Shown here: positions 1-37,076 of the stretch, in pieces | Layout: each line of letters starts with the position of its first letter | How positions within the stretch are numbered: position 1 is the stretch's first letter | Origin: Synechococcus sp. PNGco_S_binSS4 | Lineage (GTDB): Bacteria; Cyanobacteriota; Cyanobacteriia; PCC-6307; Cyanobiaceae | Direction of reading: 5' to 3' | NCBI GenBank assembly: GCA_007571085.1 | Contig: RKSC01000168.1 | Location: 1 to 37,076, forward strand | DNA: 37,076 nucleotides | The notes under the pieces: generated by a model | The model's database searches: none | Seen by the model: the letters and a program-made list of their open reading frames with translations, nothing else | What the model was told of the DNA's origin: nothing | Program-made: the position numbers and the translations under genes

Positions 1-1004
1 TCCCGATACCAGCCCACAAACTGCTCCAGGCCATGGCGCAAACTGGTGTTGGGCTGAAAATCCACAGCCTGTTGTAGGGCTGACACATCAGCATGGGTCT
101 GTTGCACATCCCCTGCTTGCATGGGCATGAACTCCACAATGGCTTTCTCTCCCAAGGCCTCCTCCAAAAGCTCGATGAACTCCAGCAGGGGCACCGGGCT
201 CTGGTTGCCAATGTTGAACACACGCCATGGGCCATAGCTGGTGGCCGCTGTAACCTGCTCCTCCATGGGCCGGGGCTGGGGTGGTTTGGCCAGTAGGCGC
301 ACCAGACTGTCCACCACGTCGTCCACATAGGTGAAATCCCGTCCCATGCGCCCGTGGTTAAACACCTGGAGCGGCTCCCCTGCCAAGATTTTTTGGGTGA
401 AGGTCCAATAGGCCATATCCGGCCGGCCCCATGGGCCATAAACAGTGAAAAACCGCAGCCCTGTGCAGGGCAGCCCATAGAGATGGCTGTAGGTGTGAGC
501 CATGAGCTCATTGGCCTTTTTCGTGGCCCCGTAAAGGCTCACAGGGTGATCCACCGGATCCTCCTCCGCAAAAGGCAGCTTGCGGTTGGCCCCATAGACC
601 GAGCTGCTGCTGGCATAGATCAAGTGGGGCACTTGCTGCTGACGACACCCCTCCAACACATGGCCAAAGGCCACCAAGTTGCTGTTGATGTAGGCAGAAG
701 GATTCTCTAGGGAGTAGCGCACCCCAGCCTGGGCCGCCAGATGGACCACCGCAGCAAAGTGGTGCCCAGCAAAGAGGGCAGCACAGTCATGGCCCCGGGC
801 CAGGTCCATTTCCACAAACTGGAACTGGGGCCACAGCCCCAACTGGGCCAGGCGGTCCCGTTTTAGCCGGGGAGAATAGTAGCCATTGCAGTTGTCTATG
901 CCCACCACAGGCACCTGGGCCTGGAGCAAGGCCCGGCTCAGGTGAAAACCGATGAAGCCAGCCGCTCCTGTAACCAGAACTGGCTCAGCCTGATGTGCGC
1001 CCAT
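1..1004 (-). CDS. NAD-dependent epimerase/dehydratase, UDP-glucuronate 4-epimerase-like (3' end runs off the window)
   Basis: Not in ORF track. Manual minus-strand translation from ATG 1004 gives MGAHQAEPVLVTGAAGFIGFH (Rossmann GxxGxxG). Near base 1 it reads PMQAGDVQQTHADVSALQQAVDFQPNTSLRHGLEQFVGWY, the typical family C-terminus. Confidence 0.9.
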   Translation of the reverse strand, partial: MGAHQAEPVLVTGAAGFIGFHLSRALLQAQVPVVGIDNCNGYYSPRLKRDRLAQLGLWPQFQFVEMDLARGHDCAALFAGHHFAAVVHLAAQAGVRYSLENPSAYINSNLVAFGHVLEGCRQQQVPHLIYASSSSVYGANRKLPFAEEDPVDHPVSLYGATKKANELMAHTYSHLYGLPCTGLRFFTVYGPWGRPDMAYWTFTQKILAGEPLQVFNHGRMGRDFTYVDDVVDSLVRLLAKPPQPRPMEEQVTAATSYGPWRVFNIGNQSPVPLLEFIELLEEALGEKAIVEFMPMQAGDVQQTHADVSALQQAVDFQPNTSLRHGLEQFVGWYR

Positions 1005-2421
1005 AGTGATCTTCAAAACGGACAATATCGTCTTCCCCTAGGTAGGCTCCACTCTGCACTTCGATGAGCTCCAGGGGAATCCGGCCAGGATTGCTGAGGC
1101 GATGGTGGCAGCCCAGGGGAATGTAGGTGCTCTGATTCTCGCTGAGCAGCATGGTGTCCCCATCGCGCTCCACCCGGGCTGTGCCTTGCACAACCACCCA
1201 ATGCTCAGCCCGATGGTGATGCATCTGCAACGACAGGGAGCAGCCTGGTTTCACGTGAATTCTCTTCACCTGCCACCGCTCCCCCTCCACCCCGGTGTCG
1301 TAGTGGCCCCATGGTCGATAGATGCACTGGTGGGCTTGTATTTCCCGCGCGCCGGCACCATGAAGACGCTCCACCGCTTGTTTCACAGCCTGTGTCTGGT
1401 CCCGTCTAGCCACCAGCACGGCATCCTTGGTTTCCACCACCACCAGATCCTCAAGACCCAAGCCCATTACTAGGCGGTGTTCGCTGCGCAGGTAGCAATT
1501 GCGCACGTTCTCATGGAATACCCGCCCCCAGATGGCGTTGCCCTGCCCATCTTGATCCCCTTTCTCCCAGAGGGCCTCCCAGCTGCCCACATCACTCCAG
1601 CCTGCCTCTAGGGGGGCCACACTGCCCAGGTTGGTCTTTTCCATCACGGCCACATCAATGGCCAAGGGGGGGCAGCGACGGAAGGTCTCCGGCTCTAGGC
1701 GGAGGAAGTCCAGATCCCTCTGGGCCTGTTGAAGGGATGCGCTGGCGGCCTGCAGCAGCTCAGGTGCATAGCGCTCCAACTCCCCCAACATCACACCAGC
1801 ACGAAACAGAAAAATGCCACTGTTCCAGCTGAAGTTTCCCTGGGCCATAAAGGCCTGGGCCCGCTCACGGCTGGGCTTCTCCACAAAGCGCCCAATGGGA
1901 TTTAGGCCAAACTTGTCCGGTTGGGAATCGGCTTCAATGTAGCCGTAGCCAGTGGCAGGGGTGGTGGGCACCACACCAAAGGTCACCAGCCGGCCCCCTA
2001 AGGCAGCGGGCATGCCCTGGCTAATGGTGGCCCGGAAGGCCTCAGGATGGGCAATGGCGTGGTCAGCTGCCAAGATCAGCAGCAGGGGATCCTCCTGGTT
2101 CTTGTTCCTGGCTTGAAGACTGGCAACAGCCACCGCTGGGGCCGTGTTGCGGCCTACGGGCTCCAGCACAATGGCCCCGGGCTCCATGTTGATGGTGCGT
2201 AACTGCTCAGCCACAATGAAGCGGTGGTCATCGTTGCAGATCAGCAGGGGTGGCTGTAGCCCCGGCAGACCCTTCAACCGCAGTAGGGTTTGCTGCAGAA
2301 GGGTTTCCTTGCCCATGAGGGAAAGAAACTGCTTGGGATAGGTGGCCCGGGACAGGGGCCAGAGCCGGGTGCCCACACCTCCGCACAGCACAACCGGAAT
2401 CACAGCTTTGGGTGAGGCCAT
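985..2421 (-). CDS. manC: Mannose-1-phosphate guanylyltransferase / mannose-6-phosphate isomerase
   Basis: LCGGVGTRLWPLSR, PKQF, EPVGRNTAPA, FVEKP, WSDVGSW, and a C-terminal cupin (RPWG, SLQMHHHRAEHW). ATG 2421 overlaps the rimM stop (TGATG). Confidence 0.95.
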   Translation of the reverse strand: MASPKAVIPVVLCGGVGTRLWPLSRATYPKQFLSLMGKETLLQQTLLRLKGLPGLQPPLLICNDDHRFIVAEQLRTINMEPGAIVLEPVGRNTAPAVAVASLQARNKNQEDPLLLILAADHAIAHPEAFRATISQGMPAALGGRLVTFGVVPTTPATGYGYIEADSQPDKFGLNPIGRFVEKPSRERAQAFMAQGNFSWNSGIFLFRAGVMLGELERYAPELLQAASASLQQAQRDLDFLRLEPETFRRCPPLAIDVAVMEKTNLGSVAPLEAGWSDVGSWEALWEKGDQDGQGNAIWGRVFHENVRNCYLRSEHRLVMGLGLEDLVVVETKDAVLVARRDQTQAVKQAVERLHGAGAREIQAHQCIYRPWGHYDTGVEGERWQVKRIHVKPGCSLSLQMHHHRAEHWVVVQGTARVERDGDTMLLSENQSTYIPLGCHHRLSNPGRIPLELIEVQSGAYLGEDDIVRFEDHYGRTSG

Positions 2422-3011
2422 CAGGATTCGGGCCGATGATCTGAGCCTATGGCATCCACTGGTGTGGATTCTGTTTCCCCTGGCAAGAGTCCTTCCGGTG
2501 GGTCCAGTAGGAGCCACCCCTCATTGATGTGCACCTGGGGAACGATGGCCTTCACAAAAGGCACCAAGATGGATTGCCCCCCAGCCATGGGACGAACCTC
2601 TATCAGGTCATTGCCCCCGTGGAGCAGGTTCACCACCGTGCCCAGGGCTGGACCTGCCGGATCCAATCGCACCTCTAAGCCCTCCAGGTCTAAGAGATGG
2701 AACTCACCCTCCCCCAAGGCCGGGCGGCTGGTGCCATCCACCAGAAGACGGTGCTGAATCAATTTCTCCGCCTGGCTCCGTGTCTCAATGCCCTTGAGCA
2801 CAATCCCATAAAGACCCCTGCGGGGCAGGGAACGACCCCGCAGCAATTCCACCAGTCGAGGAGGCTCATGTCCCCTCTGCAACCAGCGGGGACCAGGCTC
2901 CAGAAAGCGCTCCGGGAAGTCACTGCAGGGCAAAATCCGCAGTTCTCCCTTCAATCCCTGAGGGGCCACCACCAGGCCAATCTCAATCAGTGGAGGAACA
3001 ACCCTAACCAA
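2421..3011 (-). CDS. rimM: Ribosome maturation factor RimM
   Basis: IGLVVAPQGLKGELRI, SDFPERF, EFHLLDLEGL, GNDLIEV, LVPFVKAIVP, PPEGLL. Confidence 0.93.
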   Translation of the reverse strand: MVRVVPPLIEIGLVVAPQGLKGELRILPCSDFPERFLEPGPRWLQRGHEPPRLVELLRGRSLPRRGLYGIVLKGIETRSQAEKLIQHRLLVDGTSRPALGEGEFHLLDLEGLEVRLDPAGPALGTVVNLLHGGNDLIEVRPMAGGQSILVPFVKAIVPQVHINEGWLLLDPPEGLLPGETESTPVDAIGSDHRPES

Positions 3012-3017
3012 TGCTCC

Positions 3018-3054
3018 CTAGGCTAAAAGCTGGCAACTAGGCTAAAAGCTGGCA
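3018..3054. repeat. 19-bp tandem duplication (ctaggctaaaagctggca[a/c]) x2
   Basis: Read directly in the rimM / hypothetical divergent intergenic region. Confidence 0.9.
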
Positions 3055-3111
3055 CCGGAATGCTTGCTTTTAGGGCATAATGGGGATAGGAATAGATTCC
3101 CAATTAAGCCA

Positions 3112-3507
3112 ATGCACAAACCTCTAAGACTCACCTCCCCTTTACTTGCCACCCTCATGGGGCTAGGATTGGTGACTGTGGTGGCCGTGGGAATGAAGAT
3201 GGGGAGCCCCAGCAGAGCCAGCCCCTCTGACCTGCTCCACCTGGTCAAAAGTAACCCCCGTAAGGCTGAGATGCTGTGCAAGCGATTCCAAGCCTTGAAT
3301 GCCAATGGCAATAGTGTCTACTCCTCCCTGGTTCCCAAGCAGGCTTCTACTCTGACAACTACGGTACTGACCGCTACGGTCACACCTCCATCAGTCTACT
3401 CCCCCCTAGCTCTGAATCAGCTTTCTCCAGACACTAAGCTCACCCCTGGGGAAGCCGAGATAGTTGTCACCTATGTGATTGGCCTCCATTGCCCTGGAGT
3501 GCAGTAG
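3112..3507 (+). CDS. Conserved picocyanobacterial exported hypothetical protein with a Thr-rich insert
   Basis: Hydrophobic N-terminus; LCKRFQALNA...AEIVVTYVIGLHCPGV two-Cys pattern; lies upstream of CocE/glgB. Confidence 0.7.
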   Translation: MHKPLRLTSPLLATLMGLGLVTVVAVGMKMGSPSRASPSDLLHLVKSNPRKAEMLCKRFQALNANGNSVYSSLVPKQASTLTTTVLTATVTPPSVYSPLALNQLSPDTKLTPGEAEIVVTYVIGLHCPGVQ

Positions 3508-3551
3508 CTGGTGTGAACTAACTGGAGTGAGCTAAAAGGAACTCCACTGTA

Positions 3552-5198
3552 ATGGTGGGGTCAATATTGGGGCCTCCCATGGATGGTACCAGCACTCTCC
3601 ATGGGGTCATCCATGGGCAGCGACGGTTGCAGTTACCCGATGGTGTCAGCCTCCAGTCCAGCTGTTGGAGGCCCCGCCGGGGCGGGCCATGGCCCGCACT
3701 GCTCATGCGTCAGCCCTACGGGCGAGATCTGGCCTCAACCCTGGTCTATGCCCACCCCTCCTGGTATGCCGCCCAGGGCTACCTGGTGGTCATTCAGGAC
3801 GTGCGGGGTTGTGGGGACTCCGGTGGCCAATTCCGCCTCTTCACCCATGAGGCCCATGATGGTGCTCATACCATCACCTGGCTACGGGCACAACCGGACT
3901 GCAATGGCCGGGTTGGCTGTTATGGCTTTTCCTACCAGGGGCTCACCCAGCTGCTCTGGGACGGACCAGAGGTGCCTGATTGCACCGCCCCGGCCATGGC
4001 CGGGCCCAGCCTGCAACACCATTGGTGCCGTGATGGTCAGGCGGATTGGTGGATTTTAGGACTGGCCTGGGCCCTCCAGCTGGCAGCTGGAGCCTGTAAG
4101 CGACGGGGGGATGGGGTGGCCCACAGGCGAATCCGCAAAGCCCTTGATAGCCAAAACTTTCTTGAAGAGGGCTGGAGCCTTCTCCAACAGGTGGATCCCC
4201 AGAACCACCTCCTGCGCTGGTGGGTAGCTGACTGGGAGTCACCGGTGGTGGATTGCAGCCTAAAAGCTGTCCTACAGCGGCCCATGTTGCTGATTGGGGG
4301 CTGGTATGACCCCTACCTGCGAGGCACCATGGCCCTCTATGACCAAAGCCTGATGGCTGGTGGCGCCCCCCAGCTGGTGGTGGGTCCATGGACCCATGTG
4401 AACTGGCACGGTGGCCAGCTGGATCAGCGGCAGTTGGCTTTCTTTAACCACCACCTTAAGGATTGCCCCCCAGAGCAGCCTCCCCATTCTGTTCAGCTCT
4501 TTGATAGTGGTTGTGGGAGCTGGTTGTCTAGTCCCCACTGGCCCATCACCCTGGTGGAGCGTTTTTGGTTGCGTGGTACGGGCCTCAGCGCCGTGGATAC
4601 CCAGGCCGGTGTCCTGCTTTTTGAGTCTGAACAGGCCATGGCTGGGGGCTGGGATCGACTGGTGCTGGATCCATGGCGTCCCACACCGGCGCGAGGTGGC
4701 CATCTGGACCTGGGGGCCGGGCCCACAGACCGCTACGACTTAGATTGCCGCAGCGATGTGCTCACCTTCACCACCAGGCCCCTGGATCAGCCCCTGACCC
4801 TGGGGGGTACGGTCCAGCTGCGGCTGAAGGCTGCCAGTGAGGGGAAGGGCTTTGATCTTTGCTGCACCCTCTCCCAGATGCTGGAGCCAGATGGAGATGG
4901 CCAGGTACGGGTGGAGCAGCTCTCCATGGGGGTGGAGCGCTGGCTAGGAGCTGGGGCTCAGATCCTCAATTGGCGTCAGGTTCAGTTCCAACCCCTGGTG
5001 CAAACCGTGCCAGCAGGGGTGCGACTGCGCCTGTCCATCGCTTTGGCCGGCTGGCCCCTAATTGGCATCAACCCAGGGGACGGACGTGCTCCCCATGGTG
5101 CAGCGGCCCACGAACGCCATGGGGTGGTGGTGAGTTTTTGTTGGGATGGAGCCTGGCTGCAGCTGCCACTACAGCAGAGCAAAAAGGTGGCCGCTTAG
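3552..5198 (+). CDS. CocE/NonD family hydrolase
   Basis: [19 protein letters not shown], nucleophile GFSYQG, GGWYD, GPWTH. Start may be slightly downstream. Confidence 0.9.
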
Positions 5199-5224
5199 GC
5201 TCCTACTTAGTCTCCATTCTCCCT

Positions 5225-7537
5225 GTGGTTGAGCACCCTGAAGGGCTCGTTCAAGCAGCTGAGCAACTAGCCAGCTGCCGTTACCATGAGCCCTACGCCA
5301 TTCTTGGCCCCCACCTTCTCCCTGGTGGGGACCATGTGGTGCGCGCCTGGTTACCGGATGCGGAGCGGGTAGAGCTGGTGCTCCAGGATAAGGTGCTGCC
5401 CATGGAGGCAGTCCATCATCCATGGCTGTTTGAGCAGCAGCTGAAGACCGATCCCGGAAGCACCTACCAGCTGCAGCTACAACGGGGCACCATCAACAGC
5501 CGTCAACATGACCCCTACAGCTTCCGCCAGGAGTGGATGGGTGAGTTGGACCGCCACCTCTTTGCTGAGGGGAATCATCACCACATCTGGACCCGCATGG
5601 GTGCCCATCAGATTCAGCAGGCTGGCATCAGTGGTGTTCAGTTTTGTCTCTGGGCCCCCAATGCAGTGGGTGTGTCCGTGGTTGGTGCCTTTAATGGCTG
5701 GGATGGGCGCATGCACCCAGCCCAAAAGCGCCTCGGGGGCATCTGGGAGCTGTTTATTCCTGGTTTGGGGGAAGGGGACCTCTATAAATATGAGATCCAA
5801 ACCCGCCATGGCCATCCCTACACCAAGGCGGATCCCTACGGATTTCACCATGAGGTGCGCCCTGCCACCGCCTCTGTGGTGAGCCGGAGCCAGTTTGCCT
5901 GGAGTGATGAGGACTGGGTTCGCCAGCGAGATGGGCAAAATCCCCTGGAGCAGCCCATTGCCATCTATGAGATGCACCTGGGCAGCTGGCTCCACGCTGA
6001 TAGTAACCAGCCCTATGTGGAACCTGACGGCACCACCCGCTCACCGGTGCCTGCCAATGACATGAAGCCGGGAACACGGCTACTCACCTATGGGGAATTG
6101 GCAGATAAGGTTATACCCTATGTTAAGGCACGTGGCTTTACCCATATTGAGCTGATGCCCATCACGGAGCACCCCTTCGAGGGTTCCTGGGGTTATCAGG
6201 TGACGGGTTGGTATGCCCCCACCAGTCGCTATGGGAAACCCGATGAATTCCGTGCCTTTGTGAATCGCTGCCATGGCCATGGCATCGGTGTTATTTTGGA
6301 TTGGGTGCCAGGACATTTTCCAAAAGATAGCCATGGCTTGGCATATTTTGATGGTGATTTCCTCTATGAACATGGCGACCCACGCATCGGTGAACATAAA
6401 GAATGGGGGACACTGATTTTCAATTATAGCCGCAATGAGGTGCGCAACTTCCTGGTGGCCAGTGCCCTGTTCTGGATTAGTGAGTTCCACATTGACGGCA
6501 TTCGCGTGGATGCAGTTGCCTCCATGCTCTACCGGGACTATCTCCGTCCAGAAGGAGAATGGTTACCCAATGAACATGGTGGCCGGGAAAACAAGGAAGC
6601 AGTGACTTTCCTTCAGCAGCTCAACGCAACCCTCTTCAAATACTTCCCCGGAGTCCTATCCATTGCGGAAGAGTCAACGGAGTGGCCAGGTGTTACCCAA
6701 CCTCCCAGTGAGCGTAATGGTGATGCCCTAGGTTTCAATCTCAAATGGAACATGGGCTGGATGCATGACATGTTAGATTACTTTGCTATGGATTCATGGT
6801 TCCGACAATTTCACCAGAATCTGATTACCTTTTCCATGATGTACTACCATAGCGAAAACTTCATGCTAGCCCTTTCCCATGATGAGGTGGTGCATGAGAA
6901 GAGCCATTTGTTGCATAAAATGCCAGGGGATGACTGGCGTAAGTTCGCCAACACCCGGGCCCTTCTATCCTATATGTGGACCCATCCTGGCAAGAAAACA
7001 ATTTTTATGGGTATGGAGTTTGGCCAGCGTGGGGAATGGAATGTCTGGGATGACCTGGAATGGGATAAAATGCAATATCCTGATCATCAGAAGCTCATGA
7101 AAATGATTGATGACATGAACGCCCTCTACAAGTCTGAACCAGCTCTCTGGCGAGAGGACTTTCACACCAACGGCTTTCAATGGATCCACTGTGATGATAA
7201 CCGCAACAGTGTTATCAGCTTCATGCGACGGGATGAGCACAGTCAACGTTGGTTGGTTGTGGTTTGTAACTTTACTCCAAATCCCCACAAGAGCTATCGC
7301 ATTGGTGTGCCCCTGGATGGCTGGTATGGAGAAATCTTCAACAGCGATGCAGAAATCTATGGAGGCGGTAACTTGGGGAACATGGGAGGTCGCTTTACAG
7401 ACCCCTGGCCCATGCACAGCTATCCTCACTCCCTGGATCTGTGCTTACCTCCCTTAAGTACAGTCATCTTCCGCCACAGCTCCCATGGTCCCCACCAGGA
7501 AGAAGCCGTAGCGACTGTTCCTGTTCCATCGCATTGA
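5225..7537 (+). CDS. glgB: 1,4-alpha-glucan branching enzyme
   Basis: [42 protein letters not shown]. Likely GTG start at 5225; the ORF-track start at 4859 overlaps CocE. Confidence 0.97.
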
Positions 7538-7548
7538 TGCTTGCCTCA

Positions 7549-8601
7549 ATGGCCGATTCCCTTCCTCTGCTTCTCCGTGCCGCTTTAGGTGAACCCACCT
7601 GGCGCACACCCGTCTGGATGATGCGCCAGGCGGGACGCTACATGAAGGCCTATCGACAGCTGCGGGACCGTTACCCCACCTTTCGGGAGCGCTCTGAAAA
7701 CCCTGAGCTCTCCTATGAGATCTCCATGCAGCCCTTTGAGGCATTTCACCCGGATGGGGTGATCCTGTTCTCAGATATCCTGACGCCCCTGCCAGGGATG
7801 GGCATTGACTTTGACATCATTGAAAGTCATGGTCCCCTGATTCCCCAACCCATCCGCAGCCAGGCCCAAGTTGATGCCTTACGCCCCTTAGAACCAGCTG
7901 ATTCCCTGCCCTTTGTGGGACATGTGCTGACCCGGTTGCGCCAGGCAGTGGGTAATAGTGCGGCAGTCTTGGGATTTGTGGGTGCCCCCTGGACCCTGGC
8001 TGCCTATGCCGTGGAGGGCAAAAGCAGTAAAACCTATGGGGTGATCAAGGCCATGGCCTTCCGGGAGCCAGCCCTGCTGCACCAACTCCTGGCCCACCTG
8101 GCGGATGGAATTGCCACCTACGTGCGTTACCAGATTGATTCCGGTGCCCAGGTGGTGCAAATCTTTGACTCCTGGGCTGGTCAACTGAGCCCCCAGGACT
8201 ATGACGTCTTTGCAGGACCCTACCAACAGCGTCTGATCCGCCAAGTGAAGCAGACCCACCCGGAAACCCCCCTCATCCTTTACATCTCCGGCAGTGCAGG
8301 GGTGTTGGAACGCATGGGAACCAGTGGGGCGGACATTATTAGTCTGGATTGGACCGTGGACATGGCAGACGGCCTGGCCCGACTCCCTGAACAGTTGGGT
8401 GTCCAGGGGAATGTGGATCCCGGTATTCTCTTCGGCAGCCCTGAAATGATCTGTGCCCGCATTGAGGACACACTCCACAAGGCCCAGGGACGGCGCCACA
8501 TCCTGAATCTGGGCCATGGCATTTTGCCCGGCACCCCTGAGGAGAATGCCCGCCTGTTTTTTGAGGCTGGTAAGCGCTTGGGGGCCAAGCCGGTTGCCTG
8601 A
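7549..8601 (+). CDS. hemE: Uroporphyrinogen decarboxylase
   Basis: [44 protein letters not shown]. Alternative ATG at 7537. Confidence 0.97.
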
Positions 8602-8621
8602 TTCCCTCCCTTATTGCCCAC

Positions 8622-9644
8622 GTGAGCTTGTCTGAGCCCAGTCGTATTCTCATTACTGGCGCCAGTGGCTCCATTGGCCAGGCGGTGACCGCATGGTTGC
8701 TCAAACACACCACTGCCCAACTACTGCTCTGGCTACGCCAGCCCCATAAACTCACCGCCGTTGATCAGAGCCATCCCCGCCTGGAGCTGCTGGTGGGGGA
8801 TCTGCGCCAACCCCAGGCTTTCCGCCAGCAGCTGGCCAGTGTAGATCGGGTTATTCATACGGCCACCGCCTGGGGAGATCCTGACCGTGCCTGGGCAGTC
8901 AATGTGGAGGCCGTGAAGGATCTCCTTGCCCACCTTGACCACCAGCGGCTCCAGCAGGTGCTCTATTTCTCCACCGCCAGTATTCTGGACCATGACTTGG
9001 AGCTGCTGGCAGAGGCCCAGCAGTGGGGCACGGAGTACATCCAGACCAAGTACAGCTGCCTACGCCAGCTGATGGCCCATCCGCTCCGGCAAAAGATTGT
9101 GGCCATCTTCCCCACCCTCATCTTTTCCGGTCGGGTTGATGGCCGGGACCCATTGCCCACCAGCTACCTGACCGCTGGCTTGGGATCTGCCATGGGGTGG
9201 CTTTGGCTGATGCGTTTCCTGCGGGTGAAGGCCAGTTACCACTACATCCATGGAGAGGATGTGGCCAGTATCTGTGGCCACCTGCTCACCACACCACATC
9301 GGCAGGGCCCAGAGCACTGGGGTGGTATGTGCCGCTATGTGTTGGGTCAGGCACCCCTAACCGTCAATGGCACCATGGCCCAGCTCTGCCGCTACCGCCA
9401 CATGGCCTATCCACCCGGTCTGGAGCTGCGGCCCTGGTTGTTGGAGGCCTTGGTGGCCCTGTTGCCCATTCAGCTGAGCCAGTGGGATCGCTTCACCATG
9501 CAGCGGCGCCACTTTGTCCATCATCCCATCACCCGCCCTGAAAGCTTCGGGCTCAGGTCCCGCTTCCCTGACCTGGCCACCGTCTTATGGGCAGCCGGTG
9601 TTCCCCGACGGGGCCCCATAACCGCTCCCCCCTCAAGCCCGTAA
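8622..9644 (+). CDS. NAD-dependent epimerase/dehydratase family protein
   Basis: ILITGASGSIG, HTATAWG, FSTASIL, YIQTK (YxxxK); usual position between hemE and petE. Confidence 0.88.
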   Translation: MSLSEPSRILITGASGSIGQAVTAWLLKHTTAQLLLWLRQPHKLTAVDQSHPRLELLVGDLRQPQAFRQQLASVDRVIHTATAWGDPDRAWAVNVEAVKDLLAHLDHQRLQQVLYFSTASILDHDLELLAEAQQWGTEYIQTKYSCLRQLMAHPLRQKIVAIFPTLIFSGRVDGRDPLPTSYLTAGLGSAMGWLWLMRFLRVKASYHYIHGEDVASICGHLLTTPHRQGPEHWGGMCRYVLGQAPLTVNGTMAQLCRYRHMAYPPGLELRPWLLEALVALLPIQLSQWDRFTMQRRHFVHHPITRPESFGLRSRFPDLATVLWAAGVPRRGPITAPPSSP

Positions 9645-27344: not shown

Positions 27345-27440
27345 TCAACCACCTGCAGCAAAGCTGGTGAGCAGGAGCACAGAAAGCATCAGTCCAGGGC
27401 TCAAGAGCAAGGCCAGGAGGCCCAGATCATGGGGTGTCAT
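27345..27440 (-). CDS. 31-aa single-TM small protein (MTPHDLGLLALLLSPGLMLSVLLLTSFAAGG)
   Basis: Clean ATG..TGA ORF below the ORF-track cutoff, co-oriented between DUF3082 and pdhB; resembles a recalled cyanobacterial smORF family ending FAxGG. Confidence 0.7.
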   Translation of the reverse strand: MTPHDLGLLALLLSPGLMLSVLLLTSFAAGG

Positions 27441-27482
27441 GGGGAATGAACCACTACCTACTCCAGTTTAGCCAGCTGGGAT

Positions 27483-27809: not shown

Positions 27810-27812
27810 AGC

Positions 27813-28742
27813 TCAGCAAAAACGAACCCCATCCTCCCGGAGACCACAGGCCCAGGAGTCCATGCCGTTGTCCTTGAGGTGACCAGACAAGCTGCGGTGA
27901 GTCACCTGGGCAGCCTCCATGGTGGGGAAGAGGGCAAATACACTGGGGCCAGAACCACTCATGGAAACTCCACAGCAGTTGGGAATCTGGCCCAGCAGCT
28001 CTAGGCTTTTCCCCACGGCAGGCACCTGGGCGGTCACCACCCCTTCCATTTGGTTACAGAGCAGCTCACCCACTGTGGGAAAATCTCCCCGCTGCAAGGC
28101 TGCCACCATCTCCCCATGGCGCATGGTCTGGCGGGCGCGGCAGAAAGCCTGCTCTCCTCTCAAATAACCCTGGCCCAACTCCTGCCGACAGAGGCCATAG
28201 GCCCAGGCGGTGTTCACTGATGCATCAACCCGTTTGCCGAGCAAGACGGCCCCTCCCCCGGTCTTGGCCACCGGTTCCAACCGCTCACCCCGTCCAAAGC
28301 AGAGCTGGGTACCTCCCGCCATAAAAAAGGGCACATCAGATCCCAGCTGGGCCCCATAGAGCCTTAGCTCTTCGGCGGAGAGTTCCAGCTCCCAGAGCCG
28401 GTTTAAGCCCACGAGAGCGGCGGCTGCATTGCTGGAGCCACCCCCCAAACCTGCCCTGACGGGAATGCGCTTCCGCAGATGCATCCGGGCGTTCAACTGC
28501 CGCTCAGGGAAGGCTTGCCGCAGCAGCAGGGCCGCCTGCATCACCAAGTTGGTTTGGTCACTGGCCAGTTCTGCCCCTTCACAGTGAAGCTGCAGACCAC
28601 TGTGGGTCTCCAGCATCAGCTCATCACAGAGGTCGATGGCCTGCATCACCATGGCCAGCTCATGGAAACCGTCATCCCTCAGACCCAGCAGGGCCAGGTG
28701 CAGGTTCACTTTGGCGGGAGATTCCAGCTGCAGGCAGGTCAT
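27813..28742 (-). CDS. ispE: 4-diphosphocytidyl-2-C-methyl-D-erythritol kinase
   Basis: PAKVNLHL, AGLGGGSSNAA, LGSDVPFF, MSGSGPSVF. Confidence 0.95.
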   Translation of the reverse strand: MTCLQLESPAKVNLHLALLGLRDDGFHELAMVMQAIDLCDELMLETHSGLQLHCEGAELASDQTNLVMQAALLLRQAFPERQLNARMHLRKRIPVRAGLGGGSSNAAAALVGLNRLWELELSAEELRLYGAQLGSDVPFFMAGGTQLCFGRGERLEPVAKTGGGAVLLGKRVDASVNTAWAYGLCRQELGQGYLRGEQAFCRARQTMRHGEMVAALQRGDFPTVGELLCNQMEGVVTAQVPAVGKSLELLGQIPNCCGVSMSGSGPSVFALFPTMEAAQVTHRSLSGHLKDNGMDSWACGLREDGVRFC

Positions 28743-29562
28743 GGGCGGAAAAGTGCCCCAGGGCGTGTGTCAAGGCTACCCACTGGCCAGGGGTGAGATC
28801 TTGGGGGCGCTGGCTCAGGTCTACAGAAGCCTGATGGGCCGCCTGCTCAAGACTTCCTACTGGCCAGAGGCTCCTTAAGGTTTTGCGGAGCATCTTACGG
28901 CGCCCACCGTAGGCCACCCGCAGCAGCCGCTCCAATAGGGGGGCTTGTTCCATTGTGTAAGGGCGCTGATCCAGTGGTTGGGGCATGAGCACCACCACCG
29001 CAGAGGTGACAGCTGGGGGGGGGGAAAAGCAGTCTGGGGGCACAGTACAGACTGGCTTCACCTCTGCCATGAGCTGCATGCGCACGGTAAGGGCTCCACA
29101 GGCAGGGCTACCGGGCAAGGCCGTGATGCGATCCGCCACCTCCTTCTGCAGCAGAAGGGTCAAGTGTTGGAAGGGGGGTTGTCGTGGCTGGGCAAGGCTT
29201 CCCATGAGCCGCTGCAACAGGGGACCAGTGATGTTGTAGGGAATGTTGGCCACAACTTTGTTGGGGTTATGGGGTAGGGGCAGCTTCAGCACATCCAATG
29301 CATCGCCGTGGAGCAGTAAGAAGCGCTCATCACCGCCGAAGCGCTGCTGCAAGCCACCAATGAGCTGGTTATCCAATTCCACAGCCACAACGGCAGCCAC
29401 CCGGGCGGCCAGCAGGTGTTGTGTCAGGGCCCCTCGTCCAGGACCAATTTCCAGGACCCGATCCTTGGGGTGAAACTCCGCAGCGGTGACAATCTGCCCC
29501 AGCACGCCCTGGTCACGTAACCAGTGCTGTCCTAAACGCCTGTGGTGTTGCAGCTTGATCAA
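28672..29562 (-). CDS. rsmA: 16S rRNA dimethyladenosine transferase
   Basis: GQHWL, LEIGPGRG, VANIPYNIT, LQKEVADR, RRKML. TTG start at 29562 overlaps the yraN stop. Confidence 0.93.
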   Translation of the reverse strand: MIKLQHHRRLGQHWLRDQGVLGQIVTAAEFHPKDRVLEIGPGRGALTQHLLAARVAAVVAVELDNQLIGGLQQRFGGDERFLLLHGDALDVLKLPLPHNPNKVVANIPYNITGPLLQRLMGSLAQPRQPPFQHLTLLLQKEVADRITALPGSPACGALTVRMQLMAEVKPVCTVPPDCFSPPPAVTSAVVVLMPQPLDQRPYTMEQAPLLERLLRVAYGGRRKMLRKTLRSLWPVGSLEQAAHQASVDLSQRPQDLTPGQWVALTHALGHFSAHDLPAAGISRQSEPAPGPAGSEG

Positions 29563-29948
29563 TCTAGATGTGGGGGAGGTTGGGTTACAGCATTCTCCAG
29601 ACCCACCCAGATAATCTGCTGACCACACACCACCGCCAGCCCCATGGTCACCTCACAATGGCTCCACTGGGGCGCCTCCTGCAGCCAGAGGCCAAAAGCT
29701 TGCCCTAGGCGCCGCTGCTGCTGCCAGCTGAGACAGTTGCCAGGACCACCCACAAAGGCAAGCCCTGCGGTATTGCGGCATTTCACCTCCACGATCAACA
29801 GCTGCCCATTCCGGTGGAGCAGCAGGTCCATTTCCCCATGACGACAGTGCCAGCGATGTTCCAGCATCTCCCAGCCCTGCTCCACCAGCACTGTTGCCAC
29901 CCGATGCTCTGCAGCCAGTCCCCGCTCACCGGAAGAGGGCATGGTCAT
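29559..29948 (-). CDS. YraN family (UPF0102) putative endonuclease
   Basis: GLAAE, W.CRHGEMDL, IVEVK.R. Confidence 0.85.
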   Translation of the reverse strand: MTMPSSGERGLAAEHRVATVLVEQGWEMLEHRWHCRHGEMDLLLHRNGQLLIVEVKCRNTAGLAFVGGPGNCLSWQQQRRLGQAFGLWLQEAPQWSHCEVTMGLAVVCGQQIIWVGLENAVTQPPPHLD

Positions 29949-30042
29949 TGTGTGTTATGGAGGATGGTCTAAAGATTCCCCTGGTCTGGTGGTTAGAAAA
30001 CCCACAGGACACCACTAGGCTGGGTGAAGCTTCCCTTAAACC

Positions 30043-30525
30043 ATGGCCTTGCTGCTGGCCCACCTGTTGGCCTTTGGCCTTGTCTTAACAGCTCTTTGGG
30101 CACCACCTCCAGCCTTGGGGGCCATGGACTACGCCAAGCAGTCCCTCATAGGGGCTGATTTCCAGGGCCAAGACCTGCGGGGCACCACATTTAACCTGAC
30201 CAATCTGCGGGAAGCCAATCTCAGCGGCTCAGATTTGCGGGGTGCCAGCCTGTTTGGGGCCAAACTTCAAGACGCCAACCTGCGGGGTGCTGATTTGAGA
30301 GAGGCCACCCTAGACTCTAGTATTCTTCGTCGAGCAGATTTAAGAGATGCCCGCCTGGAGGATGCCTTTGCGTTTAATGCCCGCTTTGAGGATGTGCATA
30401 TTGCTGGTGCAGACTTCACCAACGTGATTTTACGCAAGGATCAGCTCCGGGGTCTCTGCCAGCGGGCCGAGGGAAACAACCCGGTCACCGGTCGGCAAAC
30501 CCGCCGCACCCTCAGTTGCACCTAG
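30043..30525 (+). CDS. Lumenal pentapeptide repeat protein
   Basis: Signal peptide, A(D/N)L repeats, LC.RAEG.NPVTGR.TR.TL.C C-terminus. Confidence 0.92.
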   Translation: MALLLAHLLAFGLVLTALWAPPPALGAMDYAKQSLIGADFQGQDLRGTTFNLTNLREANLSGSDLRGASLFGAKLQDANLRGADLREATLDSSILRRADLRDARLEDAFAFNARFEDVHIAGADFTNVILRKDQLRGLCQRAEGNNPVTGRQTRRTLSCT

Positions 30526-30530
30526 ACCTG

Positions 30531-30848
30531 ATGGATTCCACCAGTCTCGAGCGCCTGGCTGCCTTAAAACGCCAGCTGCCGCAAAAGCTTCCCCTTCCTC
30601 AAGAAAAGCCAGCTCAACAAACATGCAAGGGGCGCCACCCCCTGGAGACCACCCAGGATCCCCAGGAGTTTTTCAGGGAGTTGATGAAGGCCAGCCCTGA
30701 TGGCCACATCCCTGACCATCTTCTGGCCCGCATGGGCACCATAGAGCAGGAGCACCAAGACCAGATGAAACAAAACTCCGGGGAAGAGTTGACCAGTCAA
30801 CAGGAGCAATACAGGGTTTTTGAGCAACTGCTTGAAGATGAAGATTAG
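30531..30848 (+). CDS. Conserved picocyanobacterial hypothetical protein
   Basis: SLERL..L.RQLPQKLP, HPLET..DPQEFFRELMKASPDG.IP.HL, Y..F.QLLEDE. Confidence 0.8.
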   Translation: MDSTSLERLAALKRQLPQKLPLPQEKPAQQTCKGRHPLETTQDPQEFFRELMKASPDGHIPDHLLARMGTIEQEHQDQMKQNSGEELTSQQEQYRVFEQLLEDED

Positions 30849-30861
30849 ATAAGCAGAAGCT

Positions 30862-30950
30862 GTTTAGATCAAGTTTAGATCAAGCAGAGGCTACATTGCT
30901 ATTTTAGGATCTTTCCAAGATATTGAGATATATCAAGATATTGAGATATA
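30862..30950. repeat. Two adjacent tandem duplications: gtttagatcaa x2 (30862-30883) and caagatattgagatata(t) x2 (30916-30950)
   Basis: Read directly in AT-rich intergenic DNA. Confidence 0.88.
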
Positions 30951-31063
30951 AGTTTTCTCACAGGTTTTCCTCGCAGTTTTGTCACAAGAATCTCCCACAA
31001 AAAGCCTCTCAAGGCTCTCAGCTTGGAATTTAAGAACCTTGGAGTTTAAGAGTCATTTAAGGG

Positions 31064-31276
31064 TCATTGATCTGCCGAATGAAGCTGACGAGCAGTTTCC
31101 CAAAGCCCCACCATTGTCCTCATCCGCTGCAGGCGAACTTTGGATACAATTGGCCGGGACATTCTGCCAAAGCAAAGTGTGGAGCCAAAGGTTTGTCGGA
31201 GGCCAGCCTTGCACAGGCTTTCTTGCTCCTTGACAATTGCGGCTAGGCTGGCGCCGTTGCTAGTTGCAGTGTCCAT
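31064..31276 (-). CDS. Possible small hypothetical protein (70 aa)
   Basis: ATG ORF co-oriented downstream of atpC; no recognisable motif. Confidence 0.25.
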   Translation of the reverse strand: MDTATSNGASLAAIVKEQESLCKAGLRQTFGSTLCFGRMSRPIVSKVRLQRMRTMVGLWETARQLHSADQ

Positions 31277-31398
31277 GGTGGGTGGTGAAGGGTGTGGAAA
31301 GGGAGAATGGGGAGCTTAGGAGTCAAGCCCTGGCTTGTCAAGGCAGGCAGATGTGGGGCATCAGACCAATACAGGTCTGTTCCCATGGGGCCAGGAAA

Positions 31399-31812
31399 TC
31401 AATCCAGTGTACCACCAGCGGCCTGAAGCCGTGCTCGTGCACGGCTGGCCTTTTGCTGGGCCTGAAGTTTTTCTGGAGTGTTGATTTGCCCTGCAACCCG
31501 GGTCAGCTCTTCTCGGGAAGCAGCAAAGGCCTTCTCGGCTTCCCCACGGTTGATGTCTGTTCCCCGCTCCGCACCGTTAACCAGCACGGTGACTTCATCA
31601 TCAATCACTTCAGCAAATCCACCCATTAGGGCAATGGAGCTCCAGGAGGAACCTTCCCGCAACCGCAGCACCCCCACATCCAGAGCAGTGAGTAGGGAGG
31701 CATGGCCTGTGAGCACCCCCAGCTGACCAGTGGTGCTGGGCAGGATGACTTCGTCGGCCGCCCCATCAAAGACGTTGGTGTCTGGGGTGAGAACCCGTAG
31801 GGTGAGGCTCAT
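31399..31812 (-). CDS. atpC: ATP synthase epsilon subunit
   Basis: LRVLTPD, LPSTTGQLGVL.GH, ALMGGFAEV, ARARLQA. Confidence 0.96.
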   Translation of the reverse strand: MSLTLRVLTPDTNVFDGAADEVILPSTTGQLGVLTGHASLLTALDVGVLRLREGSSWSSIALMGGFAEVIDDEVTVLVNGAERGTDINRGEAEKAFAASREELTRVAGQINTPEKLQAQQKASRARARLQAAGGTLD

Positions 31813-31886
31813 GGGAACAGAAAGAATGAGGGGAAAGGATCTGCCGGTGTGGAGGCTGATCCAGGGAAGAGTGTGGGATGGGCAGG

Positions 31887-33444
<1,558 letters not shown>

Positions 33445-33482
33445 AGGCCAGACCTTGTTGGCTCACCATGGGGATCCCTAAT

Positions 33483-33509
33483 TTGGCAGTCAAGCGCCGA
33501 GAGTGCTAA
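33483..33509 (+). promoter_or_regulatory. CIRCE operator (HrcA binding site)
   Basis: TTGGCAGTC-N9-GAGTGCTAA versus consensus TTAGCACTC-N9-GAGTGCTAA (two mismatches in the left arm). Confidence 0.85.
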
Positions 33510-33622
33510 CTCCTGGCGTTCAAGCCTTCGTTCTCCTATGTCAGGGCTGATCAATTCAATCCAAGACCAACTCAACCACAGGAGCAACTTTGGCTTTCAG
33601 ATGCTGAAACCCCCTTTTCCCC

Positions 33623-33934
33623 ATGGCAGCAGTTAATCTCAGCGTTTCCACCGTCAAGCCCCTGGGTGACCGGGTCTTCGTGAAGGTCTCCGAGTCAGAA
33701 GAGAAAACCGCTGGCGGCATCCTTCTTCCTGATACCGCCAAGGAGAAGCCCCAAGTGGGTGAAGTGGTCCAGGTGGGTCCTGGCAAGCGCAATGAGGATG
33801 GCAGCCGGCAGACCCCGGAAGTGAGCACTGGCAATCGGGTGCTCTACAGCAAGTACGCCGGCACAGACATCAAGCTGGGCACTGACGAGTACGTCCTCCT
33901 CAGTGAAAAAGACATCCTGGCCATTGTCGGCTGA
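33623..33934 (+). CDS. groES: Co-chaperonin GroES
   Basis: [31 protein letters not shown]. Confidence 0.98.
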
Positions 33935-33986
33935 CCTCTTCCGCCACTCCTTTTTTCCCGTCAACCTTTCCTAAGAGACACTTTCA

Positions 33987-35624
33987 ATGGCTAAGCGCAT
34001 CATTTACAGCGAAAGCGCCCGCCGCGCTTTAGAAAAAGGCATTGATACCCTCAATGAAGCCGTTGCTGTGACCCTGGGTCCCAAGGGTCGCAATGTGGTG
34101 CTGGAGAAGAAATTCGGTGCACCCCAAATCATTAATGACGGCATCACCATTGCCAAGGAAATCGAACTGGAGGATCACATCGAAAACACCGGTGTGGCCC
34201 TGATTCGCCAGGCAGCCTCAAAAACCAACGATGCTGCTGGTGATGGCACCACCACAGCCACCGTCTTGGCCCATGCCATGGTGAAGGCTGGCCTGCGCAA
34301 CGTGGCTGCCGGCGCCAATGCAATTTCCTTGAAGCGTGGCATTGATAAAGCTGCCGATTTTCTGGTCAGCGAAATCGAGAAGCTGGCCGTTCCGGTGACA
34401 GACAACAATGCCATTGCCCAAGTGGGTGCCATTGCTGCCGGCAATGATCCTGAAGTGGGTCAGAAAATTGCTGACGCCATGGACAAAGTGGGCAAGGAGG
34501 GTGTCATCTCCTTGGAAGAAGGCAAGTCCATGAGCACCGAGCTGGAGGTGACTGAGGGCATGCGCTTTGACAAGGGCTACATCTCCCCCTACTTCGCCAC
34601 CGACAATGAGCGCATGGAGGCGGTGCTGGATGAGCCCTACATTCTGCTCACTGACAAGAAAATCACCCTGGTGCAGGATCTGGTGCCTGTGCTGGAGCAA
34701 ATCGCCCGCACTGGCAAACCCCTCCTGATTATTGCCGAGGACATTGAGAAAGAAGCCCTGGCCACCCTGGTGGTGAACCGTCTACGTGGGGTGCTGAATG
34801 TGGCAGCAGTGAAAGCTCCTGGCTTTGGCGACCGCCGTAAAGCCATGCTGGAGGACATGGCAGTGCTGACTGGTGGTCAGATGATCACCGAAGATGCCGG
34901 TCTCAAGCTGGATAATGCCAAGGTGGACATGATGGGCACAGCCCGTCGGGTGACCATCACCAAGGACACCACCACCATCGTGGCGGATGGCCAAGAGGCC
35001 CATGTGAAAGAGCGCTGCGAGCAGATCCGCCGTCAGATTGATGAGACGGACTCCTCCTACGACAAGGAGAAACTGCAAGAGCGCCTGGCCAAGCTGGCCG
35101 GTGGTGTGGCCGTGGTGAAAGTGGGTGCGGCCACAGAAACCGAGATGAAAGACAAGAAGCTGCGCCTTGAAGACGCCATCAATGCCACCAAGGCTGCTGT
35201 GGAAGAAGGAATTGTTCCCGGTGGGGGCACCACCCTGGTTCACCTCATGCCCCAGTTGCAAGCCTGGGCTCAAGACAACCTCTCCGGTGAAGAGCAAACT
35301 GGCGCCCTCATCATGGCCACTGCCCTCACCGCTCCCCTCTGTCGCATTGCCGACAACGCTGGTGTAAATGGTGCCGTGGTGGCTGAGAATGTGAAAGGTC
35401 GTCCCTTCAATGAGGGCTACAACGCCGCCAAAGGCTCCTATGAGGACCTGCTGGCAGCTGGCATTGTTGATCCAGCCAAGGTGACCCGCTCTGCCCTGCA
35501 AAATGCCGCCTCCATTGCCGGCATGGTGCTCACCACTGAGTGCATCGTGGCTGACCTGCCCGAGAAGAAAGAAGCTGCTCCCGCCCCTGCTGGTGGTGGC
35601 ATGGGTGGAGACTTTGACTACTGA
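33987..35624 (+). CDS. groEL: Chaperonin GroEL (GroEL1)
   Basis: [35 protein letters not shown] tail. Confidence 0.98.
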
Positions 35625-35671
35625 TCTGCTGGTCTGCTGATCTGCGGTCAATCTCTTCAAGTTTCATCTGC

Positions 35672-35698
35672 AGCGCCCCATTTAAGGGGCGCTTTTTT
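35672..35698 (+). terminator. Rho-independent terminator of groESL
   Basis: agcgcccc-atttaa-ggggcgct followed by a T run. Confidence 0.88.
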
Positions 35699-35723
35699 GT
35701 ACCTGGCCCGGTGTACCTGGCCC
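35698..35723. repeat. 14-bp-period tandem duplication (tgtacctggccc[gg]) x2
   Basis: Immediately after the groEL terminator, at the edge of the accessory region. Confidence 0.8.
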
Positions 35724-36012
35724 AGCCTGGTGAGAGTATGGTGGCACCACCTACCGTTTTCCAACGGGCTGGGGGAACTGCAGGGCTGGGTGTCAAGCAT
35801 TCTGGCATCAAAGGTCTTATTGGCATTCCGCCTGGGAAGGGCCTCAATAATCCGGGAGTAGTATGTATGGGCACGTGCCCATGGGTTAGGGATTTATCCA
35901 ACTCCTCACGGGCATAGTTGTTATGGCCTGTACAGACACCCATGGCCTGGACGCAGTGTTGTATGTTTCAACTGATCCCGTTGCTCCCTGGAGGAGGTAA
36001 CCTTCCCACAAT

Positions 36013-36278
36013 TTGCTGGCCCATGACCCAGACACTGATGGCTCCCTGGAGGCCAAGCTCAAGCACCTTGAATTGATTCAAGGTGTTATTAACCGCCTTG
36101 CCGGGGAGTCAGCCAGGCTCAAGAACTGGAGCGTGACCCTGGTTGCCGGGTTGTTCGCCCTCATGGGAAGTACGGGCTAGCTGGACACATTCCGGCTGGA
36201 TGCATTCATGGTGACCCTCATGCCCATAGTGGTCTTCTGAATCCTGGACGGTTACTTCCTGTGCCATGAGCGGCTGTA
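36013..36278 (+). pseudogene. N-terminal half of an uncharacterised transmembrane protein (candidate TIR-associated effector), two in-frame stops
   Basis: Not in ORF track. Manual translation: EAKLKHLELIQGVINRLAGESARLKNWSVTLVAGLFALMGSTG*LDTFRLDAFMVTLMPIVVF*ILDGYFLCHERL, ending abruptly at the TIR junction. Confidence 0.75.
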
Positions 36279-36701
36279 GACAATGATTGGGAAGCTATCA
36301 AGAAAAGTGGGGACAGTGCAATCAAGAGCTGGATCGCCGACCAGATGAAGGGTCGTTCCTGCACCGTTGTCCTGGTGGGGAGGAATACCGCTAATCGCAA
36401 GTGGATCAACTACGAAATCTATGAGTCCTGGAATAATAAGATGGGAATTGTTGGCATCCATATCCACGGCCTGAAAGACCGGGATGGCCATACATCATCC
36501 AAGGGCAAGAATCCTTTTCAGTACATTACTCTGGAGAACTCTTCCAAGAGGCTATCATCCATTGTAAAGTGCTACGACCCGGAAGGTGACTGCAGCAAAA
36601 AACGTTACCGTTGGATCTCCCAGTATCTAGAGGCCGCCGTGGAAGAAGCAATTCAGATCCGAGCAAAAACAAGATGGCTCCGCTTCACCCTTCCCATCTA
36701 G
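36279..36701 (+). pseudogene. ThsB-like / DUF1863 (MTH538) TIR domain gene lacking its N-terminus
   Basis: DNDWEAIKKSGDSAIKSWIADQMKGRSCTVVLVG..TANRKWINYEI..SW..GIVGIHIHGLKD..KGKNPF. The catalytic-type Glu is intact; the first strand (FxSFHY) and about 30 aa are missing. Confidence 0.85.
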
Positions 36702-36903
36702 ACTGGTCCATGTAGCACTTCAGGCCATCTGTCATAGATCTTTTTGCTGGAGCTAGGGGACTTCCCCCGCCTTTACTCACCTTGGGTTCCCTGTGCAGAT
36801 GGCAGGGGATATGGGTAAGTGTGCCAATTGTATTAGCGGCATAAATAGACCTGACTTTGAGCATTAAGTAAGATAAAAAGCTTCTTGCCGATGATTTTGC
36901 CCC

Positions 36904-37076
36904 GTGTCTGCTTCGCCCCTTAAAGCTCTGCTTGCTGTTGGCCTTATGGGTTTAGGCACTTTTCCTAATCCAGCCTTGGCCTACGAGACCACACGTAAGC
37001 AATATGGCGATAATAACAAAGAAGAATTAACTCCATGTTTCCCAACAAGAACTGAAGAGTATATTCATTTTAAGCA
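36904..37076 (+). CDS. Secreted protein, 5' part (runs off the window)
   Basis: GTG start; MSASPLKALLAVGLMGLGTFPNPALA-YETTRKQYGDNNKEELTPCFPTRTEEYIHFK open to the end, with an ALA signal-peptidase site. Confidence 0.55.
   Translation, partial: MSASPLKALLAVGLMGLGTFPNPALAYETTRKQYGDNNKEELTPCFPTRTEEYIHFK

Follow-up and report, generated by a model that had tools for sequence, protein, structure and literature searches.

The 37,076-nucleotide contig C1 of Synechococcus sp. PNGco_S_binSS4, the whole of which is referred to here as the window, is densely populated by the palindrome CCATGG. This raises the question of whether the hexamer is a highly iterated palindrome (HIP) in place of the octamer HIP1 (GCGATCGC), as a preliminary description proposed, and which process maintains it. 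The CCATGG excess is real and genus-wide; it is a weak HIP-like bias, inflated in this genome by strong CpG decay, and is most likely non-adaptive. A mutational ratchet and selection are the competing accounts of how HIP1 itself arose; here, gain and loss of sites can be measured directly, since the clade combines a bias that is weak and ongoing with closely related genome pairs and with no MutL found.

CCATGG in the window

The window contains 89 CCATGG sites, 37 of them within the first 12 kb, with an observed/expected ratio (O/E) of 7.96 at Markov order 0. These values agree with the earlier estimate of about 85–90 sites, with about 37 before position 12 kb, and of an approximately 8-fold excess. 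Dinucleotide-preserving shuffles of the window yield 31.7 ± 6.1 sites, and none of 100 shuffles reaches 89, leaving an excess of 2.8-fold. The sites occur, as also stated earlier, in several reading frames and in intergenic DNA: 32 read nCC-ATG-Gnn, 24 nnC-CAT-GGn, and 9 CCA-TGG, and 24 are intergenic or lie at gene boundaries. HIP1 is absent from the window, with zero copies of GCGATCGC, as the preliminary description had it. The features of the window are as follows (the gene names psb28-like, secF, secD, pdhB, atpC/atpD, and groES/groEL are those that we take to apply):

31..35945, unstranded: dispersed CCATGG palindromes, 89 sites, and 299 CCATG/CATGG half-sites
3552..5198, plus strand: site-dense open reading frame (ORF), presumably CocE/NonD-like as judged by its sequence, 12 sites, 7.3/kb
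6271..6282, unstranded: tandem doublet CCATGGCCATGG (sites at 6271/6277), the junction of which creates TGGCCA
10226..11660, unstranded: decayed restriction–modification islet with a truncated D12-class adenine methyltransferase and an opposite-strand ORF
17145..22091, unstranded: site-dense metabolic gene block, 26 sites, 5.3/kb
17387..17398, unstranded: second tandem doublet (17387/17393)
22111..27255, unstranded: site-poor conserved block (psb28-like gene, permease, secF, secD, pdhB), 1 site, at 24713
31399..35624, unstranded: atpC/atpD and groES/groEL, 3 intragenic sites, 0.5–1.0/kb
36000..36720, plus strand: fragmented ThsB-like TIR remnant islet with a transmembrane part, 0 CCATGG

Both doublets and the 12-bp-spaced pairs at 3599/3611 and 9657/9669 are found where they had been reported. 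Genome-wide, 47 tandem doublets join the two commonest palindromes, TGGCCA being the second most enriched. G6276 of the first doublet is a G>C variant in two of four metagenome runs. The scarcity of sites in conserved genes also holds (secDF 1, pdhB 0, atpC/atpD 1, groES/groEL 2), as does their absence from the TIR islet. The restriction–modification islet serves as an internal control for recently acquired DNA, with a CG O/E of 0.73 and one internal CCATGG. Its methyltransferase matches positions 1–184 of the 253 of profile PF02086, and the opposite-strand ORF has a weak helix–turn–helix match. Several strain single-nucleotide polymorphisms (SNPs) and a 3-base indel lie within this islet in two metagenome runs.

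The genome and its relatives

The window belongs to a 1.68-Mb draft (G000) with 57.3% GC, 169 contigs, and 95% completeness. Its PdhB is 94–95% identical to proteins from Ca. Synechococcus spongiarum and kin, and in a protein tree G000 is sister to nine other genus members (FastTree support 1.0); G000 is a member of the ‘Ca. Synechococcus spongiarum’ genus. The nine congeners, G001–G009, form the sister clade, and G017 and G018 are free-living family members. Composition samples comprise 24–56 kb for each congener and 60–80 kb from three HIP1-rich control genomes. Window positions 2500–22400 are spanned with few differences by contigs from four sponge metagenome runs of one study, so the CCATGG excess is not an assembly artefact, one run being possibly the window's own source. 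The 40 strain SNPs listed across the four runs are too few for a spectrum.

Size and composition of the excess

G000 carries 4,469 CCATGG sites (2.66/kb; 2,660/Mb), one GCGATCGC, and three CGATCG. CCATGG is its most over-represented hexamer, with O/E values of 8.67, 2.81, 2.32, 1.56, and 1.03 at Markov orders 0–4. Approximately 3.7-fold of the 8.7-fold order-0 excess is low-order, trinucleotide composition—chiefly CpG loss—and the remaining 2.3-fold is a longer-context bias on CCATG/CATGG. The dinucleotide O/E values are 0.43 for CG, 0.56 for TA, 1.41 for CA/TG, and 1.20 for CC/GG. The flanks of CATG are nearly independent (the probability of C is 0.63 with the far-side G and 0.59 without it), which identifies the pentamer CCATG/CATGG as the unit.

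The excess persists in the codon-preserving check that had been suggested: a synonymous shuffle leaves 2.2-fold, one that also keeps the codon box and the next base 1.34-fold, and a codon-order shuffle 5.2-fold. Protein sequences themselves therefore hold part of the signal. Sites number 261/2198/1157 by frame, with synonymous-shuffle O/E of 1.8/1.8/3.6, and 705 are intergenic. Methionine is followed by a G-starting codon in 56–58% of cases in the genus versus 45–51% in free-living relatives.

The excess could be a by-product of low-order features, namely CpG and TpA depletion, CC/GG excess, codon and amino acid usage, and start-codon context, with no process at the level of the motif. This would fit the trinucleotide share of the excess and the small remainder left by the strictest shuffle. 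Furthermore, about 2,100 of the 4,469 sites are expected if CCA and TGG are positioned independently of each other, TGGCCA (6.5-fold) and CAGCTG (4.5-fold at order 0) rise alongside, and 164 of 828 called ATG starts lie inside CCATGG. Start-codon context contributes, but convergent spacers, too, are enriched (65 sites; O/E 10.5 at order 0 and 3.7 at order 2), and an upstream start is possible for only 91 of 519 spacer sites. Intergenic DNA as a whole has order-0 and order-2 values of 10.8 and 3.25, respectively, and the order-2 values of intergenic DNA, convergent spacers included, span 3.0–3.7. In a logistic model with pairwise terms over ±6 positions and trinucleotide terms, by which about 2,000 hexamers were ranked, CCATGG is the top residual of G000 (1.22 at 4-fold sites, 1.52 intergenic). 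A simulation with measured trinucleotide rates, which are noisy and present-day only, yields O/E of just 1.2–2.0 from free-living or random starts and erodes the real G008 from 5.5 to 4.3. A purely low-order origin is, on these grounds, unlikely.

GGCGCC is the top residual hexamer at congener 4-fold sites (O/E 1.40), not in G000.

Distribution in the genus and the family

The sponge-symbiont genus has a two- to threefold higher CCATGG density than its free-living relatives. All nine congeners carry 1.6–2.0 sites/kb (genome sizes rounded), and the maximum among 144 family members outside the genus is about 1.07/kb. In the congener samples, CCATGG is the top palindrome in 8/9 and the top hexamer in 7/9, with O/E of 5.0–6.3; free-living samples have 1.7–2.8. 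At order 2, congener samples give 2.29–2.31 (CG O/E 0.72–0.73), G017 1.31, and G018 1.55. The base preceding ATG at synonymous NC[N] positions is C in 0.91–0.95 of cases in the genus versus 0.46–0.69 in free-living relatives.

The comparison of orthologous sites proposed earlier separates the two groups: 395 of 862 coding sites are shared with an aligned congener and 36 of 245 with free-living orthologues. This sharing pattern and the NC[N] shift date the change to the genus stem.

HIP1 is already scarce in free-living family samples (40–182/Mb). Since the Cyanobiaceae samples are HIP1-poor, CCATGG is not a substitute for a lost HIP1, and the reading of CCATGG as standing ‘in place of HIP1’ has to be given up. 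TGATCA reaches an order-0 O/E of 4.6–7.6 in free-living samples and only 1.1–1.2 at order 2. CGATCG is two to three times enriched in free-living relatives and almost absent across the genus (O/E 0.01–0.13).

CpG decay in G000

The CG O/E of G000 is 0.43 (0.33–0.54 per contig in all contigs >5 kb) versus 0.62–0.77 in the congeners. From G008 to G000, C>T differences per 1000 amount to 226–502 at CpG versus 52–231 at non-CpG positions, and transversions to CC/GG and CA remove further CG. The G000 branch features Arg>His changes 17 times versus 3 and Val>Met 7 times versus 0. Double CpG decay (CCGCGG>CCATGG) as the sole cause is rejected: congeners with a CG O/E of 0.62–0.77 still have a 5- to 6-fold excess.

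An intact C5 methyltransferase (PF00145) is not found in the 95% complete G000; an 80-amino-acid relic lies at C124:1780–2019, and 6/9 congeners have a PF00145 match. In its strong CG depletion (0.43) and TG/CA excess (1.41), G000 resembles CpG-depleted bacteria with a CpG methyltransferase, such as Mycoplasma penetrans with M.MpeI, as cited in PMC11282364. Unlike that case, G000 has 57% GC, no intact C5 methyltransferase found, and transversion losses.

C>A differences toward G000 are twice as frequent as the reverse. The mutY gene is present in 9/9 congeners, and in G000 its place falls exactly in the gap between contigs C160 and C148, which makes MutY loss, considered as a source of the bias, no more than possible.

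Gain and loss of sites

Substitutions were polarized in G008, G001, and G003 with congener outgroups. In the larger set of 5,685 classed substitutions, expectations were derived by trinucleotide for synonymous and intergenic changes and by amino acid pair for nonsynonymous changes. CCATGG is gained 24 times versus 14.8 expected (p 0.018) and lost 43 times versus 56.9 (p 0.034), a ratio of 2.1, with 16 motifs tested. The gain and loss ratios are 1.31/0.77 for CCATG and 1.33/0.93 for CCAGG; no comparable bias is seen in this set for TGGCCA (1.15) or CATG (1.19). Among 453 pentamers, CCATG/CATGG takes the top rank (z 4.0), and among 1,042 hexamers, CCATGG is 11th. Nonsynonymous gains number 15 versus 7.7 expected, and Leu>Met occurs 17 times on the G000 branch versus 2 in reverse; the bias prevails over constraint on the protein.

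Both the gains and the shortfall in losses are distributed over transitions and transversions by many routes. This route table bears on a single chemical hot spot, be it C>A driven by N4-methylcytosine (m4C) at CCWGG (yielding CATGG), deamination of 5-methylcytosine (m5C) in CCACGG/CCGCGG, or template switching at quasi-palindromes. G000 possesses an MvaI/BcnI-family system, a preprint (bioRxiv 10.1101/2021.01.19.427316) puts the possible rise in C>A under m4C systems at up to about 500-fold, and CCCTG>CCATG gains number 12 versus 5.5 expected. The sister product CAAGG is, however, not enriched (order-1 O/E 0.93–1.03), losses are reduced as well, and GCATGC, TCATGA, and ACATGT are depleted in G000. 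The route table largely refutes the hot spot, which is very improbable. C>T at the cytosines of CCATGG lies below expectation, which argues against m5C there. No motif position mutates faster.

Among congeners, CCATGG is the most conserved 4-GC palindromic hexamer, ranking 1/15 in coding (0.65) and 1/8 in noncoding DNA (0.71), in pairs that are not independent; between G000 and G008, it ranks only third and second. Synonymous codons inside CCATGG are more conserved than those outside but no more than in the half-site. Such conservation would be expected if CCATG(G) were weakly selected as a signal for binding, Chi-like recombination, or DNA uptake, and a 1.6-fold gain with a 0.76-fold loss fits a calculated S of about 0.8. 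With a half-site in roughly each 120 bp, however, an additional one would contribute little, and no periodicity but only short-range clustering is seen. Ca. S. spongiarum reportedly lacks both RecBCD and pilT (PMC6506613). Sites are, moreover, densest where constraint is weakest: 3.4/kb in the fastest-evolving quartile of genes and 2.1/kb in the slowest (Spearman −0.29, n = 247). Selection of this kind is improbable.

Comparison with HIP1 and related motifs

The alternate HIPs comprise GGCGCC, GGGATCCC, TCGATCGA, rCCGGy, and GCsGC in the portions available of Elhai 2015 (PMC4390886) and Xu 2018 (PMC5861425). The frequency range of about 500–2500 per Mb (PMC4390886, in part) is reached by CCATGG with 2,660/Mb in G000 and about 1,600–2,000/Mb in the nine congeners. 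CCATGG resembles HIP1 and its alternates in being palindromic, exceeding 2/kb, occurring in all frames and in noncoding DNA, being conserved above controls among congeners, and having a maximal-order O/E near 1.

It is weaker, and the HIP-like strength implied earlier does not hold. HIP1 reaches order-2 O/E of 28, 28, and 140 in the three HIP1-rich control genomes, its core CGATCG 4–7, and GGATCC in a fourth genome 4.0, versus 2.3 for CCATGG and 3.8 for the octamer GCCATGGC (in a model that, unlike Xu's, is not frame-specific). Neither exceeds the second-order enrichment of 16 set for octamers in the consulted part of PMC5861425. Order-0 over-representation of GGCGCC is 15.5- to 30-fold, 30-fold being that of Calothrix PCC 7103 (PMC4390886, in part); CCATGG, at 8.7-fold next to a second palindrome at 6.5-fold, is no such outlier. 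The consensus is soft, with one-off variants being common and probabilities of each base given the rest of 0.63/0.63/0.51 versus 0.84–0.99 at the inner positions of HIP1. CCATGG also differs from HIPs in having no GC-methyl core. No cognate methyltransferase is identified for it, and in 33 contigs of ≤37 kb (1,990 sites) no period up to 15 kb is seen, only clustering below 1 kb. Given its strength, its sharpness, and its not replacing HIP1, CCATGG is not classed as a HIP.

The preliminary description had held that loss of the excess after correction for CCATG/CATGG would speak against a special process. The excess is indeed gone at the maximal order (1.03), yet this outcome is nondiagnostic since HIP1 in the control genomes gives 1.06, 0.96, and 1.07. 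The maximal-order Markov test thus cannot tell a HIP from background.

CCATGG further resembles the ‘weak oligomer’ TGATCA (group C1 of Elhai) as the top palindromic hexamer of a HIP1-poor picocyanobacterium with a modest order-0 O/E. In contrast to TGATCA, it keeps a higher-order residual (2.3 versus 1.1–1.2), and in the symbiont genus it has taken over from TGATCA as the leading word. CCATGG lies between the HIP controls and TGATCA in order-2 strength. In Synechococcus BL107 and CC9902, GCCATGGC leads the palindromic octamers, with values of 5.2 and 4.8, read as O/E (PMC4390886 supplement). No paper pairing CCATGG with ‘highly iterated palindrome’ was found in a search outside which most subscription papers lie, further literature listings from it contained no account of such a bias, and CCATGG does not occur in the available portions of the main texts of PMC4390886 and PMC13756078. 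The supplements of Xu 2018 and of the 2026 survey may bear on the novelty of the bias.

Methyltransferases and repair genes

Some amino-methyltransferases of G000 stand beside NgoMIV-, MvaI/BcnI-, EcoRV-, or EcoRI-family nucleases; the others comprise type IIG/ISP enzymes, fragments, and an orphan. No CCATGG or CATG methyltransferase is identified among them, with the type IIG/ISP enzymes as possible exceptions; the link to methylation that the preliminary description drew has, accordingly, found no enzyme in G000.

Two type II methyltransferases are vertically kept in the genus. The first belongs to an NgoMIV-type system at G000:C50:18264–20006, in which an m4C-type methyltransferase is paired with a full-length NgoMIV homologue, and which occurs in at least 8/10 genus genomes. 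This count draws on 30 of about 110 PF01555 matches and 15 further regions. As a candidate for an NcoI-like CCATGG system, it is rejected, as it aligns over its full length with NgoMIV, including the recognition segment. The pair is ~80% identical across genus genomes and lies beside prfA in several—unusually stable for type II. The second, an orphan, is 65% identical to a plasmid enzyme adjoining a HindIII-family nuclease and occurs in 5/10 genus genomes and 0/51 others. Its plasmid neighbours make it HindIII-type rather than a CCATGG enzyme, with AAGCTT as the probable target. Judged by such homology, neither enzyme would point to CCATGG.

Known CATG methyltransferases belong to the D12 class. 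G008 is without D12-class and C5 enzymes, yet its CCATGG O/E is 6.2. Vsr-type patch repair is rejected as a source of the bias, with Vsr above the cut-off in only 4/9 congeners and not found in G000 or G008, and T>C routes not dominant. Loss of uracil-DNA glycosylase is likewise rejected, the gene being present in 10/10. No PAPS-reductase-type motif of Dnd/Ssp phosphorothioate systems is detected by a pattern search, a weak test. MutS (PF01624) is found in 5/5 genomes and MutL (PF01119) in none of the five, two of which are free-living; the pairing of MutS and MutL on which a ratchet depends is thus not seen. RecBCD, ExoVII, and UmuCD are reported absent or depleted in Ca. S. spongiarum (PMC6506613, in part).

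An incipient methylation-linked HIP would require that a methyltransferase marks CATG, CCATG, or CCATGG and that methyl-directed repair fixes site-creating mutations—Elhai's ratchet—with the flanks built independently. The site frequency lies about the HIP range, independent gain of flanks is a prediction of the ratchet (PMC4390886, in part), HIP1 likewise has a maximal-order O/E near 1, and the bias is spread over routes. Methyltransferases are, moreover, numerous in the genus, and congeners hold homologues of three G000 type IIG/ISP enzymes at 45–75% identity. Set against this are the NgoMIV- and HindIII-type assignments, the high O/E of G008, the missing MutL, motif positions of which none mutates faster, and the soft consensus. 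This origin is considered possible but doubtful. Equally tentative is the bolder proposal that a new HIP is taking shape in the genus at present, by a MutL-independent methylation/repair ratchet on CCATG/CATGG that pushes Met and His into proteins. If true, the clade would be a living, HIP1-free model of the origin of iterated palindromes.

Origin of the bias

The preferred reading, held with a probability of roughly 55%, is that CCATGG accumulates non-adaptively in a reduced-repair lineage, driven by a weak bias of replication or repair that depends on context, favours CCATG/CATGG, and adds to the effect of CpG loss. The excess has three layers. A faint CCATG/CATGG residual is already present in free-living relatives (O/E 1.7–2.8). 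At the genus stem, an ancestral preference for G before AT flipped to C, and an approximately 2-fold bias by many substitution routes is, at modest significance, still active. In G000, extra CpG loss converts CG to CA, TG, CC, and GG, which are four of the five dinucleotide steps that make up CCATGG, and lifts the O/E from about 6 to 8.7. CCATGG would act as a sequence sink. We suggest that the bias of the second layer stems from the reduced repair set (MutS without MutL; RecBCD, ExoVII, and UmuCD reported absent or depleted) rather than from site methylation or function. Of the lineage-specific, methylation- or repair-driven process proposed initially, maintenance beyond codon and trinucleotide composition stands, as judged by the top pairwise residual, the gain/loss bias, and conservation; the part that finds no support is methylation, with no CCATGG/CATG enzyme identified, cytosines that are not C>T hot, and MutL not found.

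Several observations weigh against this reading. The pooled free-living 4-fold residual of CCATGG is 1.44 (rank 4 of 1,589), as large as in G000, and this points to a genus change that is for the most part low-order. Event counts are small: the hexamer p values come from 16 motifs, and with 453 pentamers tested, a z of 4.0 is marginal. A first set of 3,593 substitutions without class control gave 16 gains versus 17.8 expected and 24 losses versus 47.9, and the G008–G000 comparison, with classes pooled, gave 112 gains versus 145. Weak selection, or repair directed by methylation, would likewise give more gain and less loss by many routes. Any enzyme or chemistry behind the bias is hypothetical, and several type IIG/ISP methyltransferases could have the motif as their target. 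MutL is also missing in the free-living G017 and G018, so its absence alone cannot explain the genus shift.

Further observations in the clade

The clade holds two sharp genome-wide shifts beside the CCATGG bias: CpG decay in G000, where no intact C5 methyltransferase is found, and the near-elimination of CAGCTG in the sister clade. CAGCTG occurs 16–400 times per genome in G001–G009 versus 2,325 times in G000, and 124 of 181 one-step differences lead to CAACTG/CAGTTG. A methyltransferase of ~370 amino acids in G001, G002, G004, and G008, not in G000, is one candidate for this loss. GTGCAC, too, is near zero in the G001–G009 samples, and the clade has hardly any T>A transversions. Within the window, 15452–16661 holds a broken leucine-rich-repeat gene, which read depth and joints indicate to be part of a multicopy, variable repeat family.

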